Source of the DNA: Candidatus Sulfotelmatobacter sp.
GTDB taxonomy: Bacteria; Acidobacteriota; Terriglobia; Terriglobales; Acidobacteriaceae
NCBI GenBank assembly: GCA_035710725.1
Contig: DASTCY010000038.1
Coordinates: forward strand, 7,495-71,494
DNA: 64,000 nucleotides
Direction of reading: 5' to 3'
Program-made: the position numbers and the translations under genes
Notes under the pieces: model-generated
Database searches by the model: none
What the model saw: only the letters and a program-made list of their open reading frames with translations
Told to the model about the DNA's origin: nothing
Shown: one piece after another, positions 4,939 to 27,500 of the stretch
How the letters are laid out: every line of letters starts with the position of its first letter
Position numbering within the stretch: position 1 is the stretch's first letter

Positions 4939-6336
4939 ATGGCACGCGCAAGAGCAGAACAGCAACCCGCAACCGGCTCCGCGTTGATCGTGCTGGTCGG
5001 ATTGAGCATCGCGTTCCTGCTGTTCATGGCATTGTTGAATGTGGCGAAGTCGGGCAACATTCTGACCGAGGCCAATCTGCTTTATGCGTCTTTGATTTTT
5101 TATGCAGGTGCGGGAGCGCTCTACCTAGGTTTCGGCGTCACGGGGAATGAATCCTATGTCAAGTTCGCCTCGTTCTCGACCTGGGCAGGACTGCTGGCCA
5201 ACACTGGCGCGGTGCTGCATCGTTGGTATGAGGCCGGACATCCTCCTTTCGCCAGCTTGTACGAAATGCTTCTGAGCTTTGTATGGACGCTGGCTGCGCT
5301 AACGCTGATTGCAGAAAAGGTCTATGGCGTGAAAGTGATTGGCACCGTGACCATGCCCGTCTCGATTGTCGGCGTCGTGCTGATGCAACTGCTGCGCAGC
5401 GACGTGAAGCCACTGGTTCCCGCGCTGCAATCGACGTGGCTGCATGTGCACGTGAGCCTGGCGATGCTGGCTTATGCGGCATGCGCGCTGAGTTTTGCAC
5501 TGGCCATGATGTTCTTGATCCAGGACAAAATGAAGACGGAGACATTTCTGGCCGCCACCAGCGTGTTTACTGTCGGAATCTACGCTGCCGCTCTCACGCG
5601 CTTTGAGAAATGGGGCGGCTTCAGCGTGATCGCGTGGGACGCCGAGAACAAATCGGAGATGTTTCTCTCGCGGGGTGTGCGGCTGTTCGTCACCATCCCA
5701 GACCTGGGCTGGCTGATGTTGCTTGTCACTCTGGCCGTTTGCGCGCCACTCGTCCTGTATGCCGTCGCGCAATGGAAAAAGAACGACAGCTTGCTGATCA
5801 TCGCCAATCGGGCCGTGTTCGTCAGCATTCTGCTGCAGACGCTTGCGTTGGTTTTCTTCCTGCTGCGGGTGCGAGACGGCCGTTATGCGTCGCTCGATCA
5901 GGAGGGCTTGTTCCCTACAAATCTGGCTGCGAGTCCCTTCATCCTTTCCGGCTTAGTCGGAGGGATTTTCGCCAACCTGCTTTATCTCCTTTTGCTGTGG
6001 CGGCGAACGGACTTAGAGCGGCTGCTGCCCGACGCAGAGGCACTTGATCGCATCACTTACAAGACGATTTGCGTGGCCTTCCCCTTACTCACCCTGATGA
6101 TCGCCGCCGGCGCCTACTGGGCCAACCGGGCCTGGGGTTCGTATTGGCAATGGGACCCGAAAGAGACGTGGGCGGCGATTACCTGGCTGATTTACGCGGG
6201 CTATTTGCACATGCGCATCACCCGCGGTTGGCGCGGACGCCGAGCTGCCTATTTCGCGATTCTTGGTTTCGCGGTGGTCATGTTTACTTTCTTCGGCGTG
6301 ACCTACCTGCTTCCCGGATTGCACGCTTATGCCTAA
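4939..6336 (+). CDS. ccsA: cytochrome c assembly protein CcsA/ResC (System II haem handling)
   Basis: Polytopic membrane protein with the Trp-rich WWD-type motif WGSYWQWDPKETWA near the C-terminus. ATG 4939 follows GGAGGA (4926-4932); the TTG at 4933 is an alternative start. Confidence 0.88.
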   Translation: MARARAEQQPATGSALIVLVGLSIAFLLFMALLNVAKSGNILTEANLLYASLIFYAGAGALYLGFGVTGNESYVKFASFSTWAGLLANTGAVLHRWYEAGHPPFASLYEMLLSFVWTLAALTLIAEKVYGVKVIGTVTMPVSIVGVVLMQLLRSDVKPLVPALQSTWLHVHVSLAMLAYAACALSFALAMMFLIQDKMKTETFLAATSVFTVGIYAAALTRFEKWGGFSVIAWDAENKSEMFLSRGVRLFVTIPDLGWLMLLVTLAVCAPLVLYAVAQWKKNDSLLIIANRAVFVSILLQTLALVFFLLRVRDGRYASLDQEGLFPTNLAASPFILSGLVGGIFANLLYLLLLWRRTDLERLLPDAEALDRITYKTICVAFPLLTLMIAAGAYWANRAWGSYWQWDPKETWAAITWLIYAGYLHMRITRGWRGRRAAYFAILGFAVVMFTFFGVTYLLPGLHAYA

Positions 6337-11961: not shown

Positions 11962-12978
11962 CTACTTGATGTCTTTCATCGTCAGCAAAGTCCCATAGTC
12001 GTGGCCGCTGGGATCGACTGCTCGCGCCACGATCGCGGCGAATGCATCGCGCAATTCGGGATACTTCGCGAGTAGAGCTTTCATGACGGCGACATTGTTC
12101 TGATAGGTCTGGTTGGTGTTGGAAATGTCGCTAGCCTGGTATTTGATGATCAGATCGAGATCGTTTCCCACCACCTGCGGAAAAACGTCGATGAGCTTAT
12201 ACGTCGCGGCGCCAGCAGGCAGGTCCACGATTTTGCCATCTGCGGGAAGGTCAGAGGGCTGCAACTTTTGCGACTCGTCATAAAGTTTATCGGTCGCGGC
12301 CGTGCTCATGAACGGCAGCGGCGAAATCAGGCTGCGCGCCTCGAGAAAATAGAGCCAGGCATTGTGCTGTTGGCCTTTGTTCTTGTATTCGCGAGCACGA
12401 GCGGCAAACCAGTCGCTGTCGTGGCCGCCAAACTGCAATTCCTTGATGTAGAGTCCGCCCAGCTTCCAGTCGCTGCCTACCTGCTGCAGAACAAACGACA
12501 CCGCGGTCGGAACCTTGACTGGAGCTGCGTCCATGATGACGACGGCGTATTTGCCAGGGGGAAGATTGTTGAGATAAAAGGCGGCGCTGTTGGAGGTTTG
12601 CCCGGACTTGCCGAACACTCCGCACAGGAACTCGGCGCGGGCAATGGGGCCCGAACCTTCGGCCACAAGCACGAAAGCGGGCCGTGCGGCGCCGCGACTC
12701 CCGGCTAGTGCCTGCTGATGATCCTTGACCGTCGCCTCAATTCCGGCGAAAACGGAGGCCACGCTGGGTATGGCGTTCTGACGGAGCGAAGCCGCGTCGC
12801 CACGAACAACCATATCGAAGTAACGACTGCCGGTTGTAGTTAGCGCGGTGTTGGTCGCTGCGTCCATGTCACTGGCCGTCTGGCAAGTTTCCGATCGGGC
12901 AGTCAGGGAAGAAAGCAGCAAAGCGAGCAGCGAAACGAAACCGCGAAATCGAAGCGTCGACAAGACAGAAGAAGACAT
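11962..12978 (-). CDS. hypothetical exported protein
   Basis: 338-aa ORF with a signal peptide (FVSLLALLLSSLTARS). I recognise no motif. Confidence 0.6.
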   Translation of the reverse strand: MSSSVLSTLRFRGFVSLLALLLSSLTARSETCQTASDMDAATNTALTTTGSRYFDMVVRGDAASLRQNAIPSVASVFAGIEATVKDHQQALAGSRGAARPAFVLVAEGSGPIARAEFLCGVFGKSGQTSNSAAFYLNNLPPGKYAVVIMDAAPVKVPTAVSFVLQQVGSDWKLGGLYIKELQFGGHDSDWFAARAREYKNKGQQHNAWLYFLEARSLISPLPFMSTAATDKLYDESQKLQPSDLPADGKIVDLPAGAATYKLIDVFPQVVGNDLDLIIKYQASDISNTNQTYQNNVAVMKALLAKYPELRDAFAAIVARAVDPSGHDYGTLLTMKDIK

Positions 12979-13123: not shown

Positions 13124-13279
13124 TAAGGAAGCTCTGATTAAGCCTGCGAAGAGTGAGGCGAGCGGAGGCAGTGGAAGAAACTCCTCGCGAAGCCACTGCT
13201 GGAGCCGACTGGCATGGGGTCCTTCGCTGCGCTCAGGATGACAGACCGAAAAGAGTGGAAGTTAATCAGAGCTTCCCTA
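13124..13279. mobile_element. MITE-like element, copy A (~156 bp, 18-bp terminal inverted repeats)
   Basis: Left end TAAGGAAGCTCTGATTAA (13124-13141) versus the reverse complement of the right end, TAGGGAAGCTCTGATTAA (13262-13279): 17/18. The interior (...CCTCGCGAAGCC...GGGGTCCTTCGCTGCGCTCAGGATGACA...) is highly similar to copy B at 21759-21912. No coding capacity. Abuts the permease stop codon. Confidence 0.6.
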
Positions 13280-13280: not shown

Positions 13281-14696
13281 TCAGCTAGAACTTTGTTGGA
13301 TTGTCGTTACATGGTTGCGGCGACGATAGAGTATCCATAGATATGCGACTGGCCCGGAAGCCAAGTTGAGCAGCCCCCATTTTCGGGTCGGGACATCGCT
13401 GTTGATCATGGCCCACAGGAAAAGCAGAGTGGGAAGGACCACCATCATGAACGCACCGAACGTACCGCCGGGAGCGCGGAAGCTTCTGGGAGTGTCGGGG
13501 TACTTGCGCCGGAATTGCCAAAACGAAAGCATGGTTTGCAAAGAGGTTGCCATGCGCGTCCACGCATAGACCGCGATAAGCTGCGGCACGGAAAAAACGG
13601 CCAACGCGGCACATAGCGCCGCCGATAGAACGATGGAGCGTACCGGCGTTCCGTAGCGTTCGCTTACTTTCCCTAATGCGGGATGAAAATAGCCATCCTC
13701 GGCCATGGTGAGGGGCAAGCGCGAAACCGACAAGACCGTGCTGTCAAGCAAGGCGAAATTTCCGATCAGGCTGGCGACGAAGATTCCTGTGCCCAGAACA
13801 TTGCCGCCGATCAGCCGGCCGGCTGTGACCAGGTAGCCGGTCTCCCATTGTTGCCAATTGCCGAGAGCCGCGAGACCGGCGGCGAGTGTGACTACGTAGG
13901 CCGCGATGGAAAGAGGAATCACGATGCCGAGGCCGATAGGGAAGTTGCGTTCCGGTTTTTCCACCTCCTCAATCACCGTAGAAAGCTGTTCGTAACCGGC
14001 GTAGGTCCAAAGCGCAATCGCCAAGCCCACTCCGTAGGCGCTCTGCCAGGGCTTGCCCGTTGGAAGAAACGGGTGAAACGGATTGAAGTGGGCCTGGTGA
14101 AAACCGAGCACGATGAAAACCAGCAGCGGCACAGCCATGATCAAAAGGAGAACCAGGGTTAACTTGCCGACCAGTTGAATGCCTCGCGCATTGAGGTAGG
14201 ACACTCCGGAAATGAATAGAACGGCTAAGGCCCAGTGTTCCATCCGCGAATGCAGGTGAAACCAATTGTCGAAGTAGTCGGCAAACGACACGCCGTATGA
14301 GGCACTCATCAGGAAGGTGCCCGTCCAATTCCACCAGCCACACTGGAAGCCCCAGAAGTCGCCCAGGGCGGTGCGACTCCAACGGTAGAATCCGCCTTCC
14401 ACAGGCATCATGGTGGTCAGTTCGGCAGTGGCCAGGGAAATCGGAACGGAGAAAAGAAAGGGCACAACGATCAGGAAGATCAGTCCCAGCCCCGGCCCGG
14501 AGCCGGAAACCATCGACTCCAGGGCAAACGGTCCGCCCGTGCAGTAGCCGAAGAGCACAGCCACGAATGGGGCCAAGCCGATCCGTCGCAGGTTTTTCGT
14601 AGGAGCGTACAGAGAAGTTGGGAGCGAGTGCTTCGGGTCAGACGGTGGCTCTGGCAAAGACGCTTTCCCCCAGTCGCGGGACAGCAGAGCGAACAT
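13281..14696 (-). CDS. APC-superfamily amino acid/polyamine permease
   Basis: 471 aa, about 12 predicted TM segments. N-terminal LAPFVAVLFGYCTGGPFALE and overall hydrophobic periodicity are typical of APC transporters. Confidence 0.8.
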   Translation of the reverse strand: MFALLSRDWGKASLPEPPSDPKHSLPTSLYAPTKNLRRIGLAPFVAVLFGYCTGGPFALESMVSGSGPGLGLIFLIVVPFLFSVPISLATAELTTMMPVEGGFYRWSRTALGDFWGFQCGWWNWTGTFLMSASYGVSFADYFDNWFHLHSRMEHWALAVLFISGVSYLNARGIQLVGKLTLVLLLIMAVPLLVFIVLGFHQAHFNPFHPFLPTGKPWQSAYGVGLAIALWTYAGYEQLSTVIEEVEKPERNFPIGLGIVIPLSIAAYVVTLAAGLAALGNWQQWETGYLVTAGRLIGGNVLGTGIFVASLIGNFALLDSTVLSVSRLPLTMAEDGYFHPALGKVSERYGTPVRSIVLSAALCAALAVFSVPQLIAVYAWTRMATSLQTMLSFWQFRRKYPDTPRSFRAPGGTFGAFMMVVLPTLLFLWAMINSDVPTRKWGLLNLASGPVAYLWILYRRRNHVTTIQQSSS

Positions 14697-14750: not shown

Positions 14751-15096
14751 GATGCGGAGCGGCTAGGGATCGGCCGAAAAGTTTTTTCGCGCCTGCCGGA
14801 GGAGTCCGTGGCGACGGAGATCCCTCGTCGCGCTGGTAAAAGCGGGCGACTTCGGGATGACAACGGCATAATGACGCGGCTAGGGCGGCAAAGTTTTTTG
14901 GCGCTTGCCGGAGGAGTCCGTGGCGACGGAGATCCCTCGTCGCGCTGGTGAAAGCGCGCGACTTCGGGATGACAACGGCATAATGACGCGGCGCGGGATC
15001 GGCCGGTTTTGTCGCGCTTGCCGGAGGAGTCCGTGGCAATGGAGATCCCTCGTCGCGCTGGTAAAAGCGCGCGACTTCGGGATGACAACGGCAAAT
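14751..15096. repeat. tandem array, 3 copies of a ~112-bp unit
   Basis: Units at 14751-14872, 14873-14984 and 14985-15096. The anchor TGCCGGAGGAGTCCGTGGC recurs at 14794, 14906 and 15019. Each unit holds short hairpins (GCGACG..CGTCGC, CGCGCT..AGCGCG) and ends ...CGACTTCGGGATGACAACGGC. Located between the ADH stop and the permease start. Confidence 0.9.
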
Positions 15097-15136
15097 TCCT
15101 GGTGGGTCCTGGCAGATCCTGGCAGATCTCACCAGT

Positions 15137-16240
15137 TCATCTCAGCGACGCAATATCAATCACGAAGCGGTATTTCACGTCATTCTTCAACAAACGATCG
15201 TAGGCACGGTCGATCTCGTTGACTCCGATCATTTCGATGTCGGAGGTGACGTTGTGCTGACCGCAGAAGTCGAGCATCTCCTGGGTTTCGCGGATGCCGC
15301 CGATAATTGAGCCGGCAATCTTCTTGCGACCAAACAGCAAGCCGGCGACCTCGAGTGGCAGAGGTTCTGAAGGGGCTCCTACGAATGCAAGCGTTCCATC
15401 CCGCTTGAGCAGATTGATATAGGGATTGATGTTGTGGGCCGCGGGCACGGTATCGAGGATGAAGTCGAACGTGTTGGCGTGCTTCTGCATGTCAGCGTCA
15501 TTCTTCGAGTTCACAGCCTCGTGCGCTCCTAGCCGAATCGCATCTGGGACTTTGTTAGGGCTGGTGGTGAACACCACTACATTGGCGCCGAATGCCGCTG
15601 CCAGTTTCACGGCCATGTGGCCCAGCCCGCCAAGGCCGATCACTCCAACTTTCTGGCCGGCCCGGACATTGGCGTGGCGCAAGGGGGAGTACGTGGTAAT
15701 CCCAGCGCAGAGCAGAGGGGCTGCCGCGGCCAAGTTCAGGTTCTTGGGCACGTGTAGAGCAAAGTCTTCGTCCACCACGACGCTCTGCGAATATCCGCCA
15801 TAGGTTACGCCTCCCAGGTGCTTGTCGGGCGAGTTGTAGGTGAAGATGGGTTGGCTGGCGCAGAACTGCTCTTCGCCTTCGCGGCAAGCATCACAGGTGC
15901 GGTCGGAATCGACCATGCAGCCCACACCGGCCAGGTCGCCTGGTTTGAACTTCGTGACCGCACTACCGGTTTTCACTACACGTCCAATGATCTCGTGGCC
16001 GGGGACGCAAGGATACGTGGTCGGCATAAAGGCGGCAAAATCGTTGTGCACGAAATGCACGTCGGTATGGCAGATGCCGCAATAAAGAATTTCGATCTGG
16101 ACATCCTTGGGTTGCGGCGCACGCCGGGGAATGTTCATCGCCGCCATGCCCGAACGCACACTCTGCGCGGCATAGGCTCGTGCGCTGTAGGTTTGCGGTG
16201 ATGGGGATTCATCGGGAACTATCGCTCGCATCGCGCTCAT
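15137..16240 (-). CDS. zinc-dependent NAD(P) alcohol dehydrogenase (cinnamyl-ADH/YahK-like)
   Basis: ORF 15137-16444 trimmed to ATG 16240 (AAGGAGG upstream). Zn ligand motifs CGICHTDVH and PGHEIIGRV, structural-Zn Cys cluster CDACREGEEQFC, Rossmann GVIGLGGLGHMAVKLA. Confidence 0.88.
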   Translation of the reverse strand: MSAMRAIVPDESPSPQTYSARAYAAQSVRSGMAAMNIPRRAPQPKDVQIEILYCGICHTDVHFVHNDFAAFMPTTYPCVPGHEIIGRVVKTGSAVTKFKPGDLAGVGCMVDSDRTCDACREGEEQFCASQPIFTYNSPDKHLGGVTYGGYSQSVVVDEDFALHVPKNLNLAAAAPLLCAGITTYSPLRHANVRAGQKVGVIGLGGLGHMAVKLAAAFGANVVVFTTSPNKVPDAIRLGAHEAVNSKNDADMQKHANTFDFILDTVPAAHNINPYINLLKRDGTLAFVGAPSEPLPLEVAGLLFGRKKIAGSIIGGIRETQEMLDFCGQHNVTSDIEMIGVNEIDRAYDRLLKNDVKYRFVIDIASLR

Positions 16241-16361
16241 GTGGGCCTCCTTGGTGCGCGGTTGGTCGGCTCGATAGAAAATCGCGCCGCCGACTCGTCC
16301 GATAGGACGCTTGCTCTCGAAACAGTGAAATTCTACTGCTCGGTGCAGATTGCCGTCCAAC

Positions 16362-17810
16362 CTAAGTTGATCGAGGGGCCGAACAGCGCTCATGGGCGAT
16401 TGCCAACTTACGTGGAGGAACATTTTGATTGAGCCGAAACACATTGCGGGGATCGTAGCGCGTTTTGATGTCGACCATACGGTCCCATCGCTCGCGATAG
16501 GCCTCAGGCACGCGATCCTGCTCGTCGCCGCTCATGAAATTTACGTAGACGCCGGGTTTCATCGCAGTCCGAAGCGTGGTGAAAAGTCCGCGAACCCAGG
16601 AGGTGTGTTCAGCATCCGCCGAAGCATTGGACCAGTTGGCGAGGAGGTTCAGGATGAAGGGAGCGCTGCGGTCGCCAAACGCGGTGTCGCTGGCAGGCAC
16701 GCGCGATGCAGCGCCACCGAGATAGGCCAACTCAATTTGGGTTTGTGGAGAAGGGATCGAATCGATTGCTTCTAGCATGCGGTCGATCGTGCCGTCGTCG
16801 AGGCGACTGAAATAACCTGATTTTGTGTAATAGCGCTGGCCGTGAGGGAAACTGGCGTCAGCCATCGTCTGAAGTTGAAGGAAAGAAATAACCCGGTTAC
16901 TGACAAATTCCGGACGGCAATGGGAAAGCGCGTGCCACAAATATGAGTTCCCGGCATCGGGATATCCAGTCCAGATGAGTGAACTGCTGGCCATCGGGCG
17001 TCCGCGACGCTCCGGAGGAATCTCGTTTGTGTGCGGTGCAAGGCGCAGGTCTATATTCCACTTCAAATCAAGCGGGGCGTCGGCCATGAAGTCTCTCCAG
17101 AATTCGAGCAGTCGGCGAATCTGAGGCTCGAAACAGAGGCCCTCGCCAAGCGTGACCGCTGTGAGCGGATGTAACTTCACTTCAAATTCAGTGACTACTC
17201 CGAAGTTGCCGCCGCCTCCGCGCAGAGCCCAAAACAAATCTGGATTTTCCCGCGAGTCGGCACGCACGATGGAGCCGTCTGCTGTTACGAGCGTGAATGC
17301 CTCGACGTTGTCGCACGACAATCCAAATCGTCGGGTAAGCCATCCCGTGCCTCCGCCCAGAACCAATCCAGATGCGCCGGTGTGCGACACAACGCCAGAC
17401 GGGAACACCAGTCCGGCCTTTTGTGTTTCGGTATCGATGGAGCCCAGCAGACAGCCTCCGGCAAAGTTGGCTCGTCGTGCGTCGGCATCGACCGTAACCT
17501 GGCGCATCCTGGAAAGATCAATCACCAACCCGCCATCGCATGTGCTGAAACCTGCGAGGCTGTGGCCGCCGCAGCGAACAGCGGTAAGAATATTGGAGTC
17601 CGACGCGGCGCAGACTGCGGCTTGAACGTCGGGAACGTTTGCGCAACGCGCGATCAAGCCGGGTTTCTTGGCCACCATGCCATTCCAGATGGCACGGGCC
17701 GGCTCGTACGCACCATCCTCCGGACGCAGCAGATCGCCTTTGAATCCTCCTCGCAGCGAGGAATAAAGCTCGTTGATTTCCGCTGTCACGCTCTCGTTTT
17801 CATTAGACAT
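16362..17810 (-). CDS. FAD-linked oxidase of the VAO/BBE-like family
   Basis: 482 aa. FAD-binding PCMH-type region with VRCGGHSLAGFS, the position of the covalent-FAD His in BBE-like oxidases. C-terminal BBE-type tail KTRYDPRNVFRLNQNV. The start overlaps the permease stop (ATGTCTAA). Confidence 0.82.
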   Translation of the reverse strand: MSNENESVTAEINELYSSLRGGFKGDLLRPEDGAYEPARAIWNGMVAKKPGLIARCANVPDVQAAVCAASDSNILTAVRCGGHSLAGFSTCDGGLVIDLSRMRQVTVDADARRANFAGGCLLGSIDTETQKAGLVFPSGVVSHTGASGLVLGGGTGWLTRRFGLSCDNVEAFTLVTADGSIVRADSRENPDLFWALRGGGGNFGVVTEFEVKLHPLTAVTLGEGLCFEPQIRRLLEFWRDFMADAPLDLKWNIDLRLAPHTNEIPPERRGRPMASSSLIWTGYPDAGNSYLWHALSHCRPEFVSNRVISFLQLQTMADASFPHGQRYYTKSGYFSRLDDGTIDRMLEAIDSIPSPQTQIELAYLGGAASRVPASDTAFGDRSAPFILNLLANWSNASADAEHTSWVRGLFTTLRTAMKPGVYVNFMSGDEQDRVPEAYRERWDRMVDIKTRYDPRNVFRLNQNVPPRKLAIAHERCSAPRST

Positions 17811-19209
17811 TTTGTTTGCGGGCCCCGAGATACAGGAGTGAGATCAAGCCCAGAAAAATGCAGAAGTTTGGAACGGACCACTGCAATCCGTCGACAAAAA
17901 AGGTTGTGGCCGCGATTGCGCCGATCAGCAGAATATTGACTAGCGTAAAGAATGGGTGAGCCGCCAAACGCATGGGCAATCGCAGAAGTTGTTCGCGAGT
18001 CAGCGCCCTGCGGAAGCGAAGGTGCGTGTTCAGTATGACGAGCCACACGAAAAGCATTCCTGCCACCGCACATCCGTAGAGCTTCAAAAAAGCGTTTCTT
18101 GGCGCAAAGATTGCCAGCAGGATGGCGGCAACGATGCCGGCAGTCGATGCCAACAGAGCGCGATGGGGGACTCCGTTGCGACTCACCGTGCCCAACCAAT
18201 TCGGTCCATAGCCTTCGCGACCTAATGAGAACAGCATTCGAGTGGAAAGATAAAGGTTCGTATTCACACTCGAAAGCGCCGCCGTGAGCACTACAAAGTT
18301 CATAATCGTGGCCGCGAAAGGGACATGAGCCGCCACGAACACGGTGACAAAGGGGCTGGCAGACACGGTCGAGGAATTGCTGGCCTGGTTCCAGGGGACC
18401 ATGGCGACCATCACAGCAATCGCCAACACGTAAAACAGAATGAGGCGCCAAACAATGCTGCGCATTGCGTGGGGTATGGTGACTTCCGGATTTTGGGCTT
18501 CTCCTGCGGTAACCGCGATAATTTCTACGCCCATGTAACTGGTCAGCGTTATCGTGAGGGAAAGCCAGACGCCCTTCCATCCCGTGGGCAGGAATCCGCC
18601 GTGCCGCGTCAGATTGGACCAGGCGGTAAGGCCGTGAGAGCCGTCGCCAAAAATCAAAAAGAGTCCAACAAAGATGAAGGCCAGGATGGCAGCCACTTTG
18701 ATCATGGCAAACCAGTATTCGAACTCGCCCAGGCGATTGACCTGCATGGCGTTGAGCATGACCAATGCGGCAGAGACTAGAACGACCCACATCCATTGGG
18801 GAACACTCGGAAACCAGAATGAAATGTAGATGGCTGCCGCGGTGACTTCGGCTCCGATGGCGATGATCTGGGCCGCTCCATAAGTGGCACGCACGGAAAA
18901 CCCCGCCCAACGATTGAGATAGGTTTCCGCGTAACAACCAAATGCTCCCGCCACAGGATGTACGACCGCCATCTCTGCCAGAACATATGCCATGACGAGG
19001 GCGACACCGGCTCCGAGCAGATAGGAAAGGATGACGGCGGGGCCAGCGAGCCGAATCGTCACACTGCTTCCCAGAAACAGACCAACTCCGATTGCGCCCC
19101 CGATGGCCATCATGGTGAGTTGTCTTTGGCTTAGGCGACGCTGAAGGTCCCCGGTTGGCCGCGTGGCAGGTGTGTCGGCGGCGGCTTCGGTGGGTTGCAG
19201 ATCAGGCAT
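17803..19209 (-). CDS. amino-acid permease (AAT family of APC superfamily)
   Basis: ORF 17803-19347 trimmed to ATG 19209. N-terminus LQRRLSQRQLTMMAIGGAIGVGLFLGSS is the AAT-family signature region. 12 TM pattern. The start overlaps the upstream aminotransferase stop (ATGCCTGA). Confidence 0.85.
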   Translation of the reverse strand: MPDLQPTEAAADTPATRPTGDLQRRLSQRQLTMMAIGGAIGVGLFLGSSVTIRLAGPAVILSYLLGAGVALVMAYVLAEMAVVHPVAGAFGCYAETYLNRWAGFSVRATYGAAQIIAIGAEVTAAAIYISFWFPSVPQWMWVVLVSAALVMLNAMQVNRLGEFEYWFAMIKVAAILAFIFVGLFLIFGDGSHGLTAWSNLTRHGGFLPTGWKGVWLSLTITLTSYMGVEIIAVTAGEAQNPEVTIPHAMRSIVWRLILFYVLAIAVMVAMVPWNQASNSSTVSASPFVTVFVAAHVPFAATIMNFVVLTAALSSVNTNLYLSTRMLFSLGREGYGPNWLGTVSRNGVPHRALLASTAGIVAAILLAIFAPRNAFLKLYGCAVAGMLFVWLVILNTHLRFRRALTREQLLRLPMRLAAHPFFTLVNILLIGAIAATTFFVDGLQWSVPNFCIFLGLISLLYLGARKQNV

Positions 19210-20371
19210 GGCTGGGAACATCGGGAGCGACCGGCACCATGAGATCCAGATTGTTCTTGAGCACTTCGACAACTGCGGCCACATCATCCATGGTGTTGTA
19301 GACATGAAATGAAATTCGCAAGCCATCGTGCCGGTTAGAGGCAACAATGCCAGCAGCCGCGAGCCTTTGCACCATTTGTGTGGAGTCCTTCGACTGCAAC
19401 ACGAGCAGCGGGCCTACAGAGTCGGCGGGAGTCTTAATCGCAATGCCCAGATCGCGCACGTGATTCAGAAGCGAGCGCGCAAGATCCTTGACATGCGCTG
19501 CAACATTCTCCATGCCGATTTTGTGAAGGAGCTGAAATCCGGGAAGAGCCGCGTAGACGTTGGGCACTGACGGAGAGCCGGATTCGAATCGCCGCGCCGT
19601 TGGCGACAGCTCGAAATGCTGAGGGTTGTAAGCAAATGGATTGGCCTGAGCAAACCATCCTGTGACGGTTGGAGCCAGCGTGGCTATCAACTCTTTGCGA
19701 ACGTAGAGAAAAGCGAGTCCAGGAGGTCCAAGCAGATATTTGAGAGTTCCAGTCAGGTAAAAATCCAGGCCCATAGCCTTCACGTCAACCGGACGGGTTC
19801 CGCAATCCTGATAGTCGTCGAGCATAACGAGCGCGCCGGCCTGATGCGCTATTTTTGTGATGGCACTGACGTCGGAGCGGAATCCGTTTTTGAAGCAAAC
19901 GTGTGTGAGGGGCACGATGCAGGTCGCGCGGTCAATCATTTTTTCGTAGTTGGCGACGGGGATCGAATGATCTTCCGCGCGTATGAATTGGACTTCTGCG
20001 CCTCTCGGGCGCTGGCCGAGCCATACGTGGCCCATGGTTGGAAACTCAAACTCCCCCATGACCACTTTCTTACGCTCTCGAAAAGGAAGGGAACTGGCAA
20101 CTCCATTGATGCCGGCCGACACGCTGGTTACAATCGCAACCTCGTCGGCGCTGGCATGGATGAATTTTGCGAAAGCGGCCCTGGCTTCTTCGTATCGCTG
20201 CATCCAAAGATCCCATGGCGACCCGTAATCGTGCCAGGTCGTAATGTACTCTTCGAGGCCAGCCTGAACGTCGTCCGATAACGCACCCTGAGAGCAGCTA
20301 TTCAGAAAAATCTTGCGTTGGAAGATTTTGAAATGAGAGCGAATCTCATGTACTTGCTCGTTGCTCAGCAT
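19202..20371 (-). CDS. class-V (fold type I) PLP-dependent enzyme, aminotransferase/lyase-like
   Basis: 389 aa. [11 protein letters not shown] near the N-terminus, PLP-Lys context [18 protein letters not shown]. The start overlaps the upstream gene stop (ATGCTGA). Confidence 0.75.
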
Positions 20372-21657
20372 GATCTTTGTATCTCAGCCAGCGCGCCAGC
20401 GAACTCGTGAATCTCGGAGACGGTATTGTAGTGCACGAGCGAGGCGCGCACCGCGCCGCTTTCGGGAGGTAATCCGAGCCGCCGCATAAGCCGTGGCGAG
20501 TACATATGACCATCGCGAACACCGATATTGCGCTTGGCCAGTTCTTCGCTGACTCGAGCTGGAGATATATTCGGAAGATTGAAGCACAGAGTTGGAACGC
20601 GTTCCCGGATGCGATTCTCCTCCGCGATGCCATAGATCGTGGCACCGCAGTCTTTGAGTACGCGCAGCATCTCGAGCGAGAGCATTTCCTCGTAGGTACG
20701 GATGGATGCCAGGCCGCGCCGCAGGTGATCTCGCCTGCCTGCCAACGCTTGCCCGGATATATCTTTACCCAGCGATGCAAGATAGCCGACGGCGGCGTCC
20801 ATTCCGGCCACATTTTCGTAGATGAAAGTACCGGCTTCGATTTTTCCAGGCGGCTCGTCAGGAATGAAATCTTCGCGAAAGGTGGGAAGCTTTTGCAGTA
20901 ATTCGTGTCGCCCCCAGAGGAAACCCATGTGGGGAGCGAAAATCTTGTAGCCGGAACACACCAGGTAATCGCAGTCGAAGGCTTGCACGTCGATCAACCC
21001 GTGAGGACCATAGTGCACGCTGTCGAGAAAGATTTCCGCGCCGGCCGTATGCGCTATTTTTGCGGCCGCAGCTACATCGACAATCGACCCGATTGCATTG
21101 GAAGTCAGAGTACAGGCGACCAAGCGCGTTGATGGCGATACCAGAGGCGCAAGGTCGTCAGGGTGCAAGTTCCCATCATCTCTCATCTTCCACCAAATTA
21201 TTTTGGCGCCACTTCTCTCCAGGGCGAGCCAGGTGGCAACGTTGGCCTCATGATCCATATCAGTGACAACAATCTCGTTGCGCTTTCCCAAGGTCTGTCC
21301 AATCGCCAAACTTACCAGGCGGATAAACGATGTAGCGTTCATACCAAAGGCGATTTCGCTGGCCTGGCGAGCGTTTACCAGGTCCGCGACACTTTGCCTC
21401 GCGCGAAAGATGGTTTCATCGACTTCACGGCTTTTTGCGTAGCGTCCGCCGCGCTGCACATTGCACTCGAGCAGATGATGATTCACCGCAGCGAGCACGG
21501 ACTCTGGCGCCTGCGCGCCCGCCGCGTTATCGAAAAATGTGAATTGGGGAGGCCGATTTATGGCAGGAAACGAGGCCCGGACGCTTTCAATGGGAAATGC
21601 GGGATTTGACCCGGATCGTTCCTCGGCGTTCATTACGCTTGATGAGTTCGTCTTCAC
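20365..21657 (-). CDS. class-V PLP enzyme, cysteine-desulfurase-like family protein
   Basis: 430 aa. [23 protein letters not shown]-Lys context [17 protein letters not shown]. First gene of the coupled minus-strand operon. Confidence 0.78.
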
Positions 21658-21758
21658 ACTTGCTCCTGGACATGCTTGGCGACGCCGCTAAGATTACTCC
21701 GCAGGCCGCCGTCAACCTATACTGCGCCGCATTTCTCGTCAAGGACGCGCGGAGGCTC

Positions 21759-21912
21759 TAGGGGAACTCTGATTTAGTCTGCCGGGCGAAGCGGAGCGAT
21801 GCAGACATTGGAAGAAATTCCTCGCGAAGCCGATGCCGACGCCGACTTGCATGGGGTCCTTCGCTGCGCTCAGGACAGAATTAAAAGGCGGAACTCAATC
21901 AGAGCTTCCCTA
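21759..21912. mobile_element. MITE-like element, copy B (~154 bp)
   Basis: Ends TAGGGGAACTCTGATTTAG (21759-21777) and CTCAATCAGAGCTTCCCTA (21894-21912) form an imperfect inverted repeat (16/19). The interior closely matches copy A. Both copies are followed by GCTAGAA. Sits in the divergent promoter region between the PLP-enzyme operon and the ThDP decarboxylase genes. Confidence 0.6.
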
Positions 21913-21937
21913 GGCTAGAATATGTCCTCTTGGTTCG

Positions 21938-22471
21938 ATGCCGGTCACAAATCCCTTTATGCCAGTGTCGGTGCAAAATTCGAGACTGATTTTCGAAAGC
22001 TTGAAAGAGTGCGGCATCCGGCTGGTCTCCGCATTACCGGAAACCTGGCTGGTGCACCTGATTCGAATGGCGGATGACGATCCGGAAGTGATTCTGGTGC
22101 GGCTGGCAAAGGAAGAAGAAGGAGTTGGCATTTCTGCCGGCGCGCACTTTGCCGGCGTGAAGTCTGCCATGCTGATGCAGAATCACGGATTCCTGGCGGC
22201 AATCAACGGCATCGTTTCCTTCGCTCATTTATACAAGATCCCTCTGCTGATGCTGATCAGTTACCGGGGCTCGTTTGGAGAGCGCGATCCCTGGCAGACG
22301 CAAGGCGGGAACGTTACAGAGCCGCTCTTGCGAGCCTTGGGCATCCCATATTTTTTTCTCGACAGTGCGGACACAGTCAAGAAGCGTATTCGGCAGGCGC
22401 AAACGCTGGCCGAGAGCAGTTTGCAACCGGTTGCCATTCTCTTGATGCGCGACCTTATGTGGGAGGAGTGA
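21938..22471 (+). CDS. ThDP-dependent decarboxylase, alpha (N-terminal pyrimidine-binding) subunit; sulfopyruvate/phosphonopyruvate decarboxylase ComD-like
   Basis: 177 aa. LIFESLKECGIRLVSALPE...LAKEEEGVGISAGAHFAGVKSAMLMQNHG resembles the stand-alone alpha subunit of split ComDE-type enzymes. ATG 21959 is an alternative start. Confidence 0.7.
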   Translation: MPVTNPFMPVSVQNSRLIFESLKECGIRLVSALPETWLVHLIRMADDDPEVILVRLAKEEEGVGISAGAHFAGVKSAMLMQNHGFLAAINGIVSFAHLYKIPLLMLISYRGSFGERDPWQTQGGNVTEPLLRALGIPYFFLDSADTVKKRIRQAQTLAESSLQPVAILLMRDLMWEE

Positions 22472-23043
22472 TGCTTCGCCTGGAATGCCTGCGCTCCATT
22501 TATTCCGAACTGGAAGATTGCCTCGTCGTCACAATCATGGGCGCTGTCGCGGCAGAGCTGCACTCGCTGGGACATCGGCCTAATTTCTTTTACCTGCAAC
22601 ACGCCATGGGGCTGGCGTCTTCGACCGGTCTGGGCCTTGCGCTCTGCCTGCCCGAGCGAAAGGTGATTGTCTTTGACGGCGATGGTTCGCTGCTGATGAA
22701 TCTGGGCAGTTTGAGCACGATGGCACGCTATTGCCCGAAAAATCTGCTGCACATTGTTTTCGATAACGAAAGTCTGTTGTCGGTCGGTGGCTTTCCCACC
22801 GCGACGTGCACCGGTACCGATCTGGAGGGAGTCGCTCGGGCCGCAGGAATTCCAAGGGCGATCACTGTACGTGATTTGGGTAGCTTTAACGCAGCGGTAA
22901 AAGACGCAACGCAGAGCAGGGAACTGACGACCATCGTCGCCAAAGTCGAAGCGACTGGTCCCGCTGGCTATATTACCGATCTGTCGCTGCTGGAGAACCG
23001 ATTTCAATTTCGTCGGCATATTCAGTCGTTGCGGCAGGCTTGA
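22471..23043 (+). CDS. ThDP-dependent decarboxylase, beta (diphosphate-binding) subunit; ComE-like
   Basis: ATG 22471 overlaps the alpha stop (GTGATG) and follows GGGAGGAG. ThDP motif GDGSLLMNLGSLSTM...IVFDNES (GDG-X-N type). Confidence 0.72.
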   Translation: MLRLECLRSIYSELEDCLVVTIMGAVAAELHSLGHRPNFFYLQHAMGLASSTGLGLALCLPERKVIVFDGDGSLLMNLGSLSTMARYCPKNLLHIVFDNESLLSVGGFPTATCTGTDLEGVARAAGIPRAITVRDLGSFNAAVKDATQSRELTTIVAKVEATGPAGYITDLSLLENRFQFRRHIQSLRQA

Positions 23044-23193
23044 GAACGCCTTAAATCTGGGTTGCAGACTGAACGTGTTGGTGAGAAAGAGTTTTTCATT
23101 TTCTTAATGTCTTCACTTTGACCAAGTAATTCGATTGGATGTATTCAGGAGGCGTCTCACAATGAATGAAAGATTAATTGCAGTTTCTTCCGG

Positions 23194-23318
23194 GGGCTGA
23201 AGCCCGCGTGGTTTATGGCGTTTGACGGCACGGCTAAAGCCGTGCCCTTCCACAAAGCCATTGGAGATAGCTATTCAAGGTTGCAATCCCACTTCTCGCA
23301 AAAGCGGCGAGAAGTGGG
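23194..23318. repeat. cluster of three REP-like hairpins
   Basis: GGGC-TGAA-GCCC (23194-23205). GGCACGGC-TAAA-GCCGTGCC followed by CTTCC (23227-23246, same family as 11855-11875). CCCACTTCTCGC-aaaagcg-GCGAGAAGTGGG (23288-23318, 12-bp stem). ORF 23271-23486(-) across them looks spurious. Confidence 0.6.
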
Positions 23319-23372
23319 GCACCCACATCCGACGCGATTGCAGGGAACTAAGTGCGAGAGTTCGAGGACTAA

Positions 23373-24149
23373 ATGTCTGAAACGCTGAACAACTTGCTGG
23401 CAGAACTTGTTAGTGGAAAATTGCGGGTCGTCGATCTTACGCAGCCGCTGAGTCCCCGAACGCCTCTGCTGCCGCTCCCGTCGCAATGGAATAACACGCC
23501 CGCATTCAAGATTTGGGAACTATCGCGTTACGACCATCGAGGTCCGGCGTGGTATTGGAATGGTTTCGAGACGGGCGAGCATACCGGGACGCATTTTGAT
23601 GCTCCCATTCATTGGGTTTCTGGCAAAGATCTGCCAAACAACAGCGTTGATCTTATTCCTCCGAACAAGTTTGTCGGGCCGGGATGCGTGATCGACGTCA
23701 GCGCAGAAGTAGCTAAGAATCCGGACCATTTGTTGACGCCCGATCACATTCGCCACTGGGAGGCGCAGCACGGCCGCATTCCTGCGGGGGCGTGGGTGCT
23801 GTTGCGAACAGATTGGTCGAAGCGAACGGATCCGAAGGACTACATTAACGCGAAAGAAAATGGACCGCACACACCCGGATTCGCCAAAGAGACGTCTGAA
23901 TTTTTGGCTAGTGAACGAGATGTGCTGGGCGTCGGCGTCGAGACGGTGGGAACCGATGCCGGGCAGGCCGCCACTTTCGATCCGCCCTTTCCGAACCATT
24001 ACCTGATGCACGGCAGCGGCAAGTTTGGATTGGCCAGCTTGTGCAATCTTGATCAGCTTCCGCCTACCGGTGCTGTCGTCATTGCCGCGCCGCTGAAGAT
24101 TGTCGGCGGGTCGGGCAGCCCGCTTCGAGTGATTGCGATCACGACGTGA
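23373..24149 (+). CDS. cyclase-family protein (kynurenine/aryl formamidase-like metal hydrolase)
   Basis: 258 aa. Family motif HxGTHxDxPxH is present as EHTGTHFDAPIHW. Confidence 0.8.
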   Translation: MSETLNNLLAELVSGKLRVVDLTQPLSPRTPLLPLPSQWNNTPAFKIWELSRYDHRGPAWYWNGFETGEHTGTHFDAPIHWVSGKDLPNNSVDLIPPNKFVGPGCVIDVSAEVAKNPDHLLTPDHIRHWEAQHGRIPAGAWVLLRTDWSKRTDPKDYINAKENGPHTPGFAKETSEFLASERDVLGVGVETVGTDAGQAATFDPPFPNHYLMHGSGKFGLASLCNLDQLPPTGAVVIAAPLKIVGGSGSPLRVIAITT

Positions 24150-24331
24150 GCGTGTGCATCCGTTTACAGCTTAACGCTGCATCGTGAGTTGCTTTGGAGT
24201 CATTTCCTTCCCGCGGCTTCTCTCGGAATCGCGTAAACGATTGTTAACACTGGTTTGCAAGCCTCGTTACCACAGGTGTTTACCTTAGTCACGCGGTTCA
24301 CCTGTTTACGGCCTTACGCTTTCTGGTCCCC

Positions 24332-24347
24332 TGGCATTGTTCGTGCA
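24332..24347 (+). promoter_or_regulatory. sigma-54-type promoter candidate TGGCAT-TGTTC-GTGCA upstream of the giant gene
   Basis: GG and GC have the canonical 10-nt separation, with one mismatch in each box relative to TGGCAC-N5-TTGCA. Located 167 nt upstream of ATG 24514. Two sigma-54 activators are encoded in the window. Confidence 0.45.
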
Positions 24348-24470
24348 TTAAGACTGCGCCATCCCTCCCCACCCCCTTGCGACTGCCCAGGGATTCGTGT
24401 CTCCCTAATTCCCCCCTGATTCTGGTCATCGGTCACGCCGATCGGCCAGGAAAAAAATTTGCGCAATAGA

Positions 24471-24488
24471 GCGCGGCTCGAGCCGCGC
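24471..24488. promoter_or_regulatory. perfect 18-bp palindrome GCGCGGCTCGAGCCGCGC in the giant-gene leader
   Basis: Self-complementary over all 18 nt, ending 25 nt before ATG 24514. Either a leader hairpin or a dimeric operator. Confidence 0.4.
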
Positions 24489-24513
24489 CAACTCCGCTTT
24501 GTTGCGAGGGTCC

Positions 24514-27500
24514 ATGAAACGCGCGCCCAAGGGTCTTCTTATTCTCCTTGTTCTTTTCTGTTTTGCCGGCCTGCTGAAGGCCACATTGCCCCAGATTCTG
24601 ATCGGCAACTGGACGACAACCAGCAATCTTTCCCAGGCAAGGTCAAATGCCGCGTCGGTTCTGCTTGCCGACGGACGCATTCTCATCATCGGAGGCGATG
24701 GCGGCAGCGGCGCCCTGCAATCGGCGGAATTTTTCGGCACCGATGGCACGGTATCGGCCGCTGCCGCAATGAATGGCGCGCGCAGCCGTCATTTTGCAGT
24801 CGTTATGGGGGACGGCCGCGTACTGGTGGGCGGCGGCACGACCACGGGCGGGGGCACAACGAATACCGCGGAAATTTATGATCCCTCCGCGAATTCCTGG
24901 ACCCAGATCAGTCCGTTGACAACGGCGCGCGCCAACGCGACCGCAGCGGTACTGCAAGATGGCCGTGTCCTGATCGCTGGCGGTGACAACTCCGGCGTGC
25001 CCAACAACACGATTGAGATTTACGATCCTTCGACCGGCAATTTCAGTTTTGCTGGAACACTTTCTTCTCCACGCACCCAGCACGCGATGGCTGTGCTGCA
25101 AGATGGCCGCGTCCTGATCGTTGGCGGATTCGACGGCACTAATTCTCTGGCTTCATCTGACATTTTCGATCCCGTCGCCGGCAGCATCAGCGCAGGTCCA
25201 AATCTTGCTACGGCACGTTATGCGCACTCGGCGACAACGCTGTTCAATGGGCAGGTTGCCGTCATCGGCGGCGCCGGTGCAGGAGCGAACGGCACGGTGG
25301 ATCTCGCTTCGATTGAACTCTTCGATCCGATGGTGGGAACATTCACGACTTCGAGCGCGACTCTGACCACAGCGCGCGAGGGACATCAGGCCTTCCTGCT
25401 TCCCAATAACAATAGCGTGGTGATCGCTGGAGGAACCTCAACTGGCGTAGCGCAAGCGTCCGCCGAGATGTTCACTCCGCAGATCTCGACCAGCAATGGA
25501 GCCTGGACTTATGCGGTGACTGCCACCGGTAGCATAAACTCGGCGCGCGCTGCCCTGACCGGCTCAGCGAACCAGGCCAACGGTCCGACTTCGACGGTAA
25601 CGCCGAAGCCCGGATTTGTGTTCGTTGCCGGCGGCACCGATGCCAATAGCAACGCGTTGAACTCAACCGAAGCCTATGGATATCCCACGGTGCAGACGGA
25701 CCAGGGTGACTATCCTCCGGGCACCACGGTCAACATTTCTGGAAATGGTTTCAAAGCTGGTGAAAGTGTCGCAATCACACTGGTTGAATCTCCGCTGATT
25801 GATACGCATGGGCCTTACACCGTCACTGCTGATGCCAATGGAAATATCGCGGACAGCAGCTTTACGACGGACTCGCACGATCTCAATGTGCGGTTCTTCT
25901 TGAACGTGGTGGGAAGTCAGTCGGGAGTGCAAGCGCAGAACACGTTCACGGACTCGAAGCCGAATACGGTGACGGTTGGAACTCAGTCTCCAAATCCAGT
26001 TGCGCCTGGAAGTGCGGCCCAGTATACGGTCACGGTCAATTTCAACGGGAACGGGAACCCGTGTACTTCGCCGCTGAGTGTGAATTCGGCCCTGCCAACA
26101 GGTGCCACTGCTTCTTTCAGCCCTAGCTCAGTGACGGGCACTAATGGAAGCAATGTCAATTCCAGCCTTACAATTACCACCACAGGTGCCACACCACCTG
26201 GCTCGACGAACTTCACCGTGCTCGCTGCGAATGGTGGGGGACAATGCCAGGCTGGAACCGCGACTGGAAGCGGAACCCTCATCGTTGTCGAGAACACGAC
26301 CACTTCGCTGGCGACTTCGCTGACGCCATCCACCTTCGGTCAATCGGTCACACTGACCGCTACGGTTGCCAAAGTCACAGGACCCACGACACCGACCGGT
26401 GGAACCGTAACCTTCCTCGATGGGGCGACGCAGATCGGCACAGCGACGCTGAGCAACGGCACGGCCACGCTGCCGATTTCCACTTTGACTGCAGGATCGC
26501 ATAGTCTCACGGCCTCTTACGGCGGCGTAACAAACCAGTTTGGCGCGAGCACCTCTTCAGCTATCAATCAGACTGTCAACGAAGCCAGCACGACGACTTC
26601 GGTTTCGAGTGCCAGCGGCACAGCCGGACAGGGAAGCGTGACGCTGAATGCGAATGTCACCGCCAATAGCCCTTCCACGGCAACCGTGAATGAAGGCACG
26701 GTAACGTTCACGGTCAAGCAGGGAGCAACCACGATTGGCACGGTGACTTCCGGCACGGTCACAGGGGGAGCTGCTTCGGCAAATTTCTCGCTGACCAGCG
26801 TGAGCGCCGGCAGCTACTCGATCAGCGCGACTTACAATCCCGCCACGACCAATCCGAATTTCACGACGAGTACCGCAGCGACTCCTGGCACGCTGACCGT
26901 AAACGCGACCAGCACGACGACAACGGTCTCCTCATCGACGAACCCATCCGCTTTCGGCCAATCGGTCACATTTACCGCAAAGATCGCGCCCGCTTCTGGA
27001 ACTGCCACTCCAACTGGCACCGTGCAGTTCGTGGTTGATGGATCCAACTTCGGAACCCCGGTGAATGTGGCCTCGTGCGCTCCCAGCCCGGACGCATGCG
27101 CAACGTCCATCAGCACCTCGACCGTCTCGGTCGGCCCGCACTCGGTAGTCGCGAACTACAGCGGCGACGGCAATTACAGTGCGAGCTCTTCGACTACGCT
27201 GACGCAAACGGTCAATGAAGCGAGCACCACGACGACGCTGACTTCCTCTGCGAACCCGTCGGTCTTCGGTCAGTCGGTCACTTTTACAGCGAGTGTCACG
27301 ATCAATGCTCCGGGAACTGGCACGATTCCCACGGGCGAGACTGTAACTTTCAAAGACGGGGCATCCACGCTCGGCACCGGAACGACCAATGCTGCAGGCG
27401 TCGCCACTTTCACCACGTCATCGCTTAGTGTCGCTACTCATTCAGTGACGGCCGTGTACGCAGGCGACACCAATTTTGCGACGAGCACTTCCAACACCGT

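Follow-up and report, generated by a model that had tools for sequence, protein, structure and literature searches.

What compound is handled by a divergently transcribed group of genes in which a two-subunit thiamine diphosphate (ThDP) enzyme and a cyclase-family hydrolase stand opposite two pyridoxal phosphate (PLP) enzymes, an amino-acid permease and a flavoenzyme? The question is raised by a 64,000-nucleotide stretch of contig DASTCY010000038.1 of Candidatus Sulfotelmatobacter sp. (this whole stretch is called the window below), in which a preliminary description had recognized an uncharacterised pathway island. According to that description an amino-acid-like compound would be imported, transaminated to a 2-oxo acid and decarboxylated to an aldehyde that is then reduced or oxidised, the most specific guess being a sulfonate route. 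Comparison with related loci and with characterised protein families leads us to another reading, to which we give an even chance of being correct: the conserved unit would be a catabolic module of two divergent operons by which a tryptophan-derived amino acid is taken up and degraded by way of isatin. The genes and intervals concerned are the following, in coordinates of the window.

15137–16444, minus strand: open reading frame (ORF) of a zinc-dependent alcohol dehydrogenase (ADH) with ADH_N and ADH_zinc_N domains; probable start at Met69, position 16240 (gene 15137–16240), with AAGGAGG upstream
16362–17810, minus strand: EncM-like FAD enzyme with FAD_binding_4 and BBE domains
17803–19209, minus strand: APC permease of the AAT type (PF00324, 333 bits)
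19202–20371, minus strand: PLP2, Aminotran_5 with a weak KYNU_C match
20365–21633, minus strand: PLP1, ATG start; the longest ORF extends to 21657
21634–21937: divergent intergenic region between PLP1 and ThDP-alpha
21938–22471, plus strand: ThDP-alpha, PYR domain (PF02776)
22471–23043, plus strand: ThDP-beta, PP domain (PF02775); its start overlaps the stop of ThDP-alpha (TGATG)
23373–24149, plus strand: cyclase-family gene (PF04199) with the motif HTGTHFDAPIH

The ORF map and the gene junctions bear out what had been read from the sequence, namely four overlapped minus-strand genes, a 121-nt gap, a split ThDP enzyme and a cyclase motif, and the Pfam assignments agree with the earlier family calls. 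The junctions from PLP1 through PLP2 and the permease to the FAD gene consist of the overlaps ATGCTGA (7 nt), ATGCCTGA (8 nt) and ATGTCTAA (8 nt), and the ADH start at 16240 leaves a gap of exactly 121 nt to the FAD gene; on an identical metagenome contig the gene caller picked an earlier ADH start. Since the orthologues of ThDP-alpha are 170 residues long, its true start is probably Met8 at 21959.

Analysis of related loci reveals which of these genes belong together. A genome scan found a ThDP-beta relative in at least 573 species-level genomes, the best 80 of which were used as the locus set; almost all of these 80 loci come from metagenome-assembled genomes of Terriglobia (Candidatus Sulfotelmatobacter, Acidoferrum and other Acidobacteriaceae) from soil and peat, and soil metagenomes hold hundreds of ThDP-beta relatives at 80–90% identity. 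Both ThDP subunits are encoded in 80/80 loci, the cyclase in 78 (contig truncation accounts for both misses), the permease in 72, PLP1 in 65, the FAD enzyme in 64 and PLP2 in 54. When all ORFs of the loci are clustered, any further gene family is present in at most 15 of the 80, the most frequent one being an antisense artefact. Because only seven families recur, they constitute a discrete module of seven genes between flanks that are not related. The ADH, which had been taken for a member of the pathway, has a relative in just 2 of the 80 loci and is a lineage-specific add-on. Three contigs labelled Candidatus Binatus and Verrucomicrobiia (L006, L007, L015) also carry the module, with ThDP-beta 84–86% identical to that of the window; as this identity falls in the same range as among the Acidobacteriota genomes, these contigs are probably mis-binned and do not reflect transfer.

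A stricter census was made of the 72 classifiable loci among the 80. Complete modules are found in 40 of them, whereas 14 are without PLP2, 5 without PLP1, 8 lack the flavoenzyme while retaining the permease and one or both PLP enzymes, and 5 keep only ThDP-alpha, ThDP-beta and the cyclase. The divergent two-arm arrangement is kept in 67/72 loci, more often than chance would produce, both flanks changing completely; the permease is part of all 67 left arms, each of which also has PLP1, PLP2 or both (PLP1 alone in 14 + 3 loci, PLP2 alone in 5 + 4). Where the left arm is absent no consistent replacement gene was found; a class-III aminotransferase, an MBOAT protein, a class A flavin monooxygenase and a transporter occur once each. 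The intergenic region between the arms has a median length of 134 nt in 71 related loci and contains a conserved core, AACCTATACT (21714–21723 in the window), which could represent back-to-back –10 elements. Co-conservation in 67/72 loci around a common, compact and conserved promoter region thus upholds the earlier view that the two divergent arms belong together. In the window this region is enlarged by about 170 nt of lineage-specific sequence that includes a 67-nt repeat (21809–21875). A second copy of the repeat with 90% identity lies at 13172–13238, between a second permease gene and the ORF at 11962–12978, and the repeat may represent a mobile element of small size or one of the REP-like kind. 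In 15000–24600, the matches to generic promoter and terminator patterns stay within what chance would give.

The cyclase had been described as lying further on from the ThDP genes. It is indeed present on that side, but its peripheral position is not general: in related loci it follows ThDP-beta directly, at a median distance of 75 nt, and it is the third gene of the right-arm operon. The 330-nt spacer of the window (23044–23372) is a local peculiarity; it contains two GC-rich hairpins (23227–23246 and 23288–23318, with local folds of –33 and –22 kcal/mol), no plasmid match to it was found, and a single 31-nt match occurs in one related locus.

The identity of this third gene is central to the interpretation of the module. 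The cyclase gives full-length matches to isatin hydrolases that have been assayed and crystallised, LaIHA (5nnb/5nna, E=6e-100), RsIHA (5nmp, 8e-98) and LaIHB (4j0n, 2e-80), with identities of 58.3%, 59.4% and 51%, respectively. These values are to be compared with the 60% identity between LaIHA and RsIHA and with just 52% between the two active Labrenzia isoenzymes. The diagnostic features of isatin hydrolases are His-His-Asp Mn ligands, a His/Asp relay, a WXW/FXW aromatic pocket and a GLQC/GLAS motif, the last being taken as a sign of isatin hydrolase activity (Sommer et al., PMC6117287). The motifs AWYWN, EHTGTHFDAPIHW, GTDAG, PNHYL and FGLASL are all present in the window protein and essentially invariant in 72 orthologues, among which the Mn ligands (HxGTHxDxPxH) and the His/Asp proton relay are kept with EHTGTHFDAPIHW, GTDAG and PNHYL. 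Trp60 and Trp62 are found in 72/72 orthologues, as is G-L-A, and the serine of GLAS in 54/72. The protein scores 32.4 bits against the arylformamidase KynB model TIGR03035, whose cut-off is 223.05, and KynB structures match it with 27–32 bits. Its assignment as an isatin hydrolase, predicted from these similarities, is well supported.

The ThDP enzyme consists of separate, adjacent PYR and PP subunit genes, with the motif GDG-X26-N (Gly70 to Asn99) in ThDP-beta, invariant in the orthologues, and the motif EEEG in ThDP-alpha, invariant in 72 orthologues. Both the superfamily and the split, ComDE-type layout that had been proposed for it therefore stand, whereas assignment to ComDE or to the phosphonopyruvate decarboxylase Ppd does not. 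Indeed, ThDP-alpha reaches 131.7 bits with the ComD model TIGR03845 (cut-off 147.95) and ThDP-beta 133.6 bits with the ComE model TIGR03846 (cut-off 221.5); the Ppd model TIGR03297 gives 80.6 and, for ThDP-beta, 124.3 bits against a cut-off of 312.5. PGAP-named ComE proteins are 41–47% identical to ThDP-beta, and its best solved relative is RhiF (9iz3), with 70.8 bits over residues 6–131 only. Most members of the ThDP-beta family carry the JGI automatic name 'sulfopyruvate decarboxylase subunit beta' despite failing the NCBIfam ComE cut-off. A genuine bacterial ComDE locus belongs to a cluster of the dihydroxypropanesulfonate (DHPS)/sulfolactate type with a TRAP transporter, an HpsN-like dehydrogenase and a hydroxy-acid oxidase, and no such sulfonate or coenzyme M genes (Xsc, SuyAB, HpsN, sulfite exporter) were found in the 64-kb window or the 80 loci. 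With the cut-offs missed and these genes lacking, the sulfonate route of the preliminary description finds no footing, while its statement that phosphoenolpyruvate (PEP) mutase is absent holds, neither this nor another phosphonate gene being found in the window.

In Deinococcus, Shinella and Variovorax, relatives of the split ThDP enzyme are encoded beside PrpD, aldehyde dehydrogenase and tricarboxylate genes and not beside an isatin hydrolase gene, and they are uninformative as to isatinate; as they adjoin PrpD and tricarboxylate genes, the ComDE/Ppd superfamily is not confined to sulfopyruvate and phosphonopyruvate. In the module the two ThDP subunits are the invariant operon partner of isatin hydrolase, including in the loci without a left arm. 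Since isatin hydrolase yields the alpha-keto acid isatinate (2-aminophenylglyoxylate), this pairing makes an isatinate decarboxylase the most likely function, and the enzyme is probably a new decarboxylase giving 2-aminobenzaldehyde. Conversion of a 2-oxo acid into an aldehyde by a two-subunit enzyme of the ComDE/Ppd superfamily, as suggested before, is in this respect judged probable. Reviews record the sequence isatin, isatic acid, anthranilate with no gene assigned to the step, and a study of the Variovorax iad genes detected C8H7NO3 and C7H7NO before anthranilate, again with no enzyme assigned; the two formulas fit isatinate and 2-aminobenzaldehyde.

The two PLP enzymes had been regarded as transaminases, which their family relationships do not support. 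PLP1 matches the VC1184 'cysteine desulfurase-like' family TIGR01976 over its full length (513.1 bits, cut-off 352.35; PLP2, 71.6 bits); among solved structures, Fgm3 (9x4u, 186 bits, 35.8% identity) and UstD (7mkv) come closest to PLP1. At the position of the desulfurase cysteine PLP1 has a loop devoid of cysteine that is similar in Fgm3 and kept in the orthologues, and its PLP-binding lysine lies in an invariant SGYK motif. In PLP2 the cysteine loop is deleted, likewise throughout the orthologues, and the motif KYLLGPPG (K-Y-L-x-G-x-P-G) around the lysine is invariant; we take this motif to resemble that of kynureninase. The match of PLP2 to kynureninase (TIGR01814) is full length but reaches 88.4 bits against a cut-off of 246.4, and the kynureninase structure 1qz9 scores 82 bits, about the same as desulfurases. 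Both enzymes miss all desulfurase equivalog cut-offs (SufS/CsdA/IscS) and score at most 41 bits with the PhnW, BhcA and pyridoxamine transaminase models; the class-V transaminase subfamilies include neither of them.

For Fgm3, PLP-dependent retro-aldol cleavage of gamma-hydroxy-arginine has been reported, and UstD produces gamma-hydroxy amino acids as a decarboxylative aldolase. The loops without cysteine, together with the likeness to Fgm3/UstD and to kynureninase, point to C-beta/C-gamma cleavage with release of alanine by both PLP enzymes and not to transamination. PLP enzymes have also been described that join the beta-carbon of L-alanine to isatin, giving a product whose m/z, 237, fits dioxindolylalanine; the reverse of this coupling would release isatin directly. 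Moreover, the either/or distribution of PLP1 and PLP2 across the loci suggests that their roles overlap and that each is able to substitute for the other. A homologue of PLP1 in Salinivibrio kushneri (L090 5375–7260) forms a tight pair, with a 2-nt gap, with the gene of a 2-oxoglutarate/iron dioxygenase, which hints that the VC1184 family may generally work as the retro-aldolase in a hydroxylase plus retro-aldolase combination.

The permease resembles the GABA, ThrP, ProY, PheP and AroP permeases, in every case below cut-off, and is proposed to import the substrate amino acid; the amino-acid importer of the earlier proposal is thus retained, as the APC permease of 72/80 loci. The FAD enzyme matches EncM (4xlo/3w8w) over its full length with E=1e-132 and 51% identity. 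His78 and the residues of the O2 pocket, whose roles in EncM have been described (PMC7662398), namely L116, L117, V135, V136, H138, T139 and L144, are identical to those of EncM and invariant in 58 orthologues. Given this complete conservation of the pocket, an oxygenase working without external reductant would fit. Genes for a polyketide synthase (PKS) or an acyl carrier protein (ACP) were not found near the EncM-like gene in the window or the related loci. The ADH reaches 295 bits with the Ahr model NF047908 (cut-off 470) and could reduce an aromatic aldehyde product.

Gene content, co-conservation and membership in families and motif classes are the observations on which the following route is built, while each substrate and the order of the left-arm steps are what we infer from them. 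The APC permease would import a tryptophan-derived amino acid, and the EncM-like flavoenzyme would oxygenate either L-tryptophan to dioxindolylalanine or oxindole to isatin. One or both of the PLP enzymes, lacking the desulfurase cysteine, would cleave a C-beta/C-gamma bond to give alanine and an indole-derived carbonyl compound; in the case of dioxindolylalanine a retro-aldol split would yield isatin and L-alanine. Isatin hydrolase would then open the lactam of isatin to give isatinate, which ThDP-alpha/beta would convert into 2-aminobenzaldehyde and CO2. The aldehyde would be handled by enzymes of the host, the adjacent Ahr-type ADH being a candidate in this genome. No description of such a module was found in the literature on isatinate decarboxylase, on dioxindolyl- and oxindolylalanine catabolism and on EncM-like enzymes acting on tryptophan; with its seven co-conserved genes, the island is as discrete and apparently undescribed as had been supposed.

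Homologues of the isatin hydrolase that are 57–62% identical are encoded on proteobacterial replicons, where they have partners of a comparable kind. In Novosphingobium (L093 18183–24908) the isatin hydrolase gene is followed directly by those of an IOR-alpha-like TPP_enzyme_C protein and a POR/DUF6537 protein. The clusters of Burkholderia sp. SFA1 and Caballeronia sp. SBC1 (L094/L099 and L095/L098) include IOR alpha and beta, an aroyl-coenzyme A (CoA) thioesterase and an enzyme of the aminobenzoyl/salicylyl-CoA hydroxylase type; in R. solanacearum (L096), the species of an assayed isatin hydrolase, an IOR gene, a thioesterase gene and an oxidoreductase gene occupy corresponding positions. The auxin-degrading iad loci likewise hold iadA/iadB of the iorA/B type together with the cyclase gene iadI. 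Since IOR-type genes are seen in the Novosphingobium, betaproteobacterial and iad loci alike, isatin hydrolase is repeatedly encoded with a ThDP enzyme that decarboxylates 2-oxo acids, the type of enzyme differing between lineages; these non-orthologous systems independently support the role proposed for ThDP-alpha/beta. The betaproteobacterial gene content suggests that isatinate is converted directly into 2-aminobenzoyl-CoA, which may also account for the unassigned iadA/iadB of the auxin loci.

The Burkholderiaceae clusters begin with a distant relative of PLP2 (28% identity, E=9e-31) and an amino-acid ABC transporter. Two of them (L098 8369–12251 and L099 12435–16001) contain a GntR-DUF3830-FAD oxidoreductase unit divergent from the PLP2-like gene and a five-gene ABC transporter with a porin, and the SFA1 cluster additionally contains an enzyme of the dimethyl sulfoxide reductase family and an ornithine cyclodeaminase. 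Judged from their gene content, these clusters look like an uncharacterised proteobacterial route from an amino acid to isatin.

Several points weigh against the proposed route through isatin. The conserved module has neither an aldehyde dehydrogenase for the reactive 2-aminobenzaldehyde nor a regulator, and we know of neither dioxindolylalanine nor oxindolylalanine as a growth substrate of bacteria. ComD and ComE are the best profile matches of the two ThDP subunits, though below cut-off; an anionic beta-substituted pyruvate stays compatible with the sequence taken alone, and the pairing of isatin hydrolase with a split ThDP enzyme is seen only in Terriglobia-type genomes. In PLP1 the tyrosine proposed as the base of Fgm3 appears aligned with a phenylalanine, the numbering being uncertain. 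The part of the flavoenzyme is ambiguous as well, as it could instead oxidise the aldehyde: it is missing from 8 of the 67 left arms, EncM itself acts on an ACP-bound polyketide, and two residues of EncM are replaced in the window protein (Y249 by D and R210 by P). Both are presumably substrate-related.

How far the module reaches beyond this outline, or falls short of it, can be weighed with the same data. In its widest form the proposal would make the module a complete new tryptophan route that parallels the kynurenine pathway and operates in abundant soil Acidobacteria, across hundreds of their species, with the EncM-type enzyme making dioxindolylalanine from free L-tryptophan, one O2 and no external reductant, and with PLP retro-aldolases, isatin hydrolase and ThDP-alpha/beta following; this we regard as possible but doubtful. 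Conversely, the right arm might be a self-contained unit for the detoxification or catabolism of isatin and the left arm an unrelated amino-acid operon that merely shares the intergenic region. The 5 loci that keep ThDP-alpha/beta and isatin hydrolase alone, the varying content of the left arm and the proteobacterial isatin hydrolase genes that often lie in indole or indole-3-acetic acid clusters without PLP genes are what one would expect from such a unit. It is nevertheless unlikely, as the divergent pairing persists in 67/72 loci of many species amid changing flanks, the short intergenic region has a conserved core, and Burkholderiaceae have independently combined a PLP2-like enzyme, an amino-acid transporter, a ThDP enzyme and isatin hydrolase.

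The remaining alternatives assign the right arm to other chemistry. A variant kynurenine pathway, in which the cyclase would be a formamidase, PLP2 a kynureninase and the flavoenzyme a tryptophan oxidase, leaves the ThDP enzyme to an unrelated step, and its invariant presence is then unexplained, because hydrolysis of formylkynurenine gives no alpha-keto acid. KynB does lie within the cyclase family, and PLP2 shows a weak full-length kynureninase match with KYNU_C, but the scores (32 vs 223 bits for arylformamidase, 88 vs 246 for kynureninase) and the WXW and GLAS motifs, which are specific to isatin hydrolase and not features of KynB, render this pathway quite unlikely. Ehrlich-type logic, with PLP-dependent transamination of an imported (aromatic) amino acid, ThDP-dependent decarboxylation, oxidation or reduction of the aldehyde and a cyclase that acts on a side product, could appeal to the transaminases within class V, to the AroP/PheP-like permease and to the ADH adjacent in this genome. 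It is very unlikely, for both PLP enzymes fall in the desulfurase/kynureninase branch with transaminase models at 41 bits or less, the closest characterised relatives of PLP1 are C-C lyases and aldolases, the ADH is not conserved, and ThDP-alpha/beta and isatin hydrolase persist without a nearby PLP gene; moreover, as the cyclase is itself a source of the 2-oxo acid when it is an isatin hydrolase, lactam hydrolysis is a more plausible origin of that acid than the transamination first supposed. Least credible of all, and highly improbable, is a sulfonate route from cysteate through sulfopyruvate and sulfoacetaldehyde to isethionate or taurine by a ComDE orthologue. The automatic JGI names, the rank of ComD/ComE as top NCBIfam models and a host clade that includes Candidatus Sulfotelmatobacter agree with it, yet both subunits stay under the trusted cut-offs with 41–47% identity to PGAP-named ComE, the accessory genes of a real ComDE locus (Xsc, SuyAB, HpsN, sulfite exporter) were not found in the module or window, and the invariant partner is isatin hydrolase.

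Outside the conserved unit lie, on the left, the two ORFs flanking the second copy of the 67-nt repeat, listed here with their occurrence.

11962–12978: ORF, in 0/80 related loci
13281–14696: second permease, in 3/80 related loci

Further to the left (248–6336), the genes of an NHL-repeat beta-propeller protein and of a cytochrome c of the multihaem type (eight paired CXXCH motifs) adjoin cytochrome c biogenesis genes of the ResB/CcsA type. Directly downstream of the module, on the plus strand, a 4314-residue ORF (24499–37443) comprises about ten Big_3_5 Ig-like domains, about ten MBG domains and two Kelch propellers. This domain content identifies its predicted product as a giant protein of the surface or adhesin type, whose N-terminus has no relative in the 80 related loci. 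A secondary-metabolite cluster was considered and rejected, as this neighbour is a Kelch/Ig-like surface protein and not a nonribosomal peptide synthetase or PKS. It is followed on the plus strand (38525–44016) by a third APC permease and two proteins of the beta-lactamase family; DUF3471 is found in one of these two, and the other is a fusion with an M15 D-Ala-D-Ala dipeptidase domain. Together the three genes may form an operon for the salvage of D-amino acids or peptidoglycan peptides. The remainder of the window encodes cytochrome c biogenesis, two-component and sigma-54 regulators, beta-lactamase-family and M15 peptidases and similar functions.

Isatin and isatinate are recurring intermediates in the bacterial breakdown of indole and auxin, and the module offers a concrete candidate gene for the fate of isatinate. 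If the assignment is true, the two-subunit ThDP decarboxylases, which are rare, act on a fourth class of substrate, represented by isatinate. Primary catabolism would gain an EncM-type flavoenzyme whose oxygen pocket for the N5-oxide is intact, and a plausible role would be available for the large, uncharacterised VC1184 'desulfurase-like' family of PLP enzymes. The module points to an unrecognised use of tryptophan-derived amino acids, in at least 573 species-level genomes as counted by their ThDP-beta relatives. Finally, members of this family are probably misnamed when automatic annotation calls them 'sulfopyruvate decarboxylase', a widespread label that could mislead the inference of sulfur and organosulfonate metabolism in Candidatus Sulfotelmatobacter and in Acidobacteria of peat and soil.

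Comparison with known systems indicates what is shared and what is particular to the window. LaIHA, RsIHA and LaIHB (PDB 5NNA/5NNB, 5NMP and 4J0N/4M8D) and IadI have fold, length and all motifs in common with the window enzyme at 51–59% identity; whereas the known genes are set in indole-monooxygenase or Rieske/CoA-ligase (iad) clusters, that of the window shares its operon with the two genes of a split ThDP decarboxylase and faces those of the PLP enzymes, the permease and the flavoenzyme. The proteobacterial clusters of isatin hydrolase and IOR follow the same logic, an isatin hydrolase accompanied by a ThDP enzyme that decarboxylates 2-oxo acids. Their IOR-type enzyme is, however, not orthologous to ThDP-alpha/beta: it is oxidative and linked to CoA and ferredoxin, and would probably give 2-aminobenzoyl-CoA and not the aldehyde, and downstream ring-cleavage genes are included in those clusters but not in the module. 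Fgm3, UstD and kynureninase share with PLP1 and PLP2 the class-V PLP fold without the persulfide cysteine, the replacement loop being similar in PLP1 and Fgm3; Fgm3 and UstD are fungal and biosynthetic, whereas PLP1 and PLP2 are bacterial and apparently catabolic. With EncM, which acts in enterocin biosynthesis as a flavin-N5-oxide oxygenase (PDB 3W8W, 4XLO), the flavoenzyme has the flavinylation site His78 and the dioxygen pocket in common, but its gene is part of an operon for amino-acid catabolism and dispensable in some genomes. Two-subunit ThDP decarboxylases described in the literature are ComDE (sulfopyruvate), RhiEF (phosphonopyruvate; PDB 9IZ3/9IZ4) and, since 2025, LumK/LumL of riboflavin catabolism; all three have overlapping PYR and PP genes, the GDG...N motif and no TH3 domain, as does the window enzyme, which differs from them in lying below the cut-offs and in having no sulfonate, phosphonate or riboflavin genes nearby. 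LumK/LumL decarboxylates a quinoxaline carboxylate, an 'alpha-keto-acid-like' aromatic N-heterocycle that arises when a ring is opened by hydrolysis, and it provides a precedent for the window enzyme, which, too, would probably act directly after the hydrolytic opening of an aromatic N-heterocycle.

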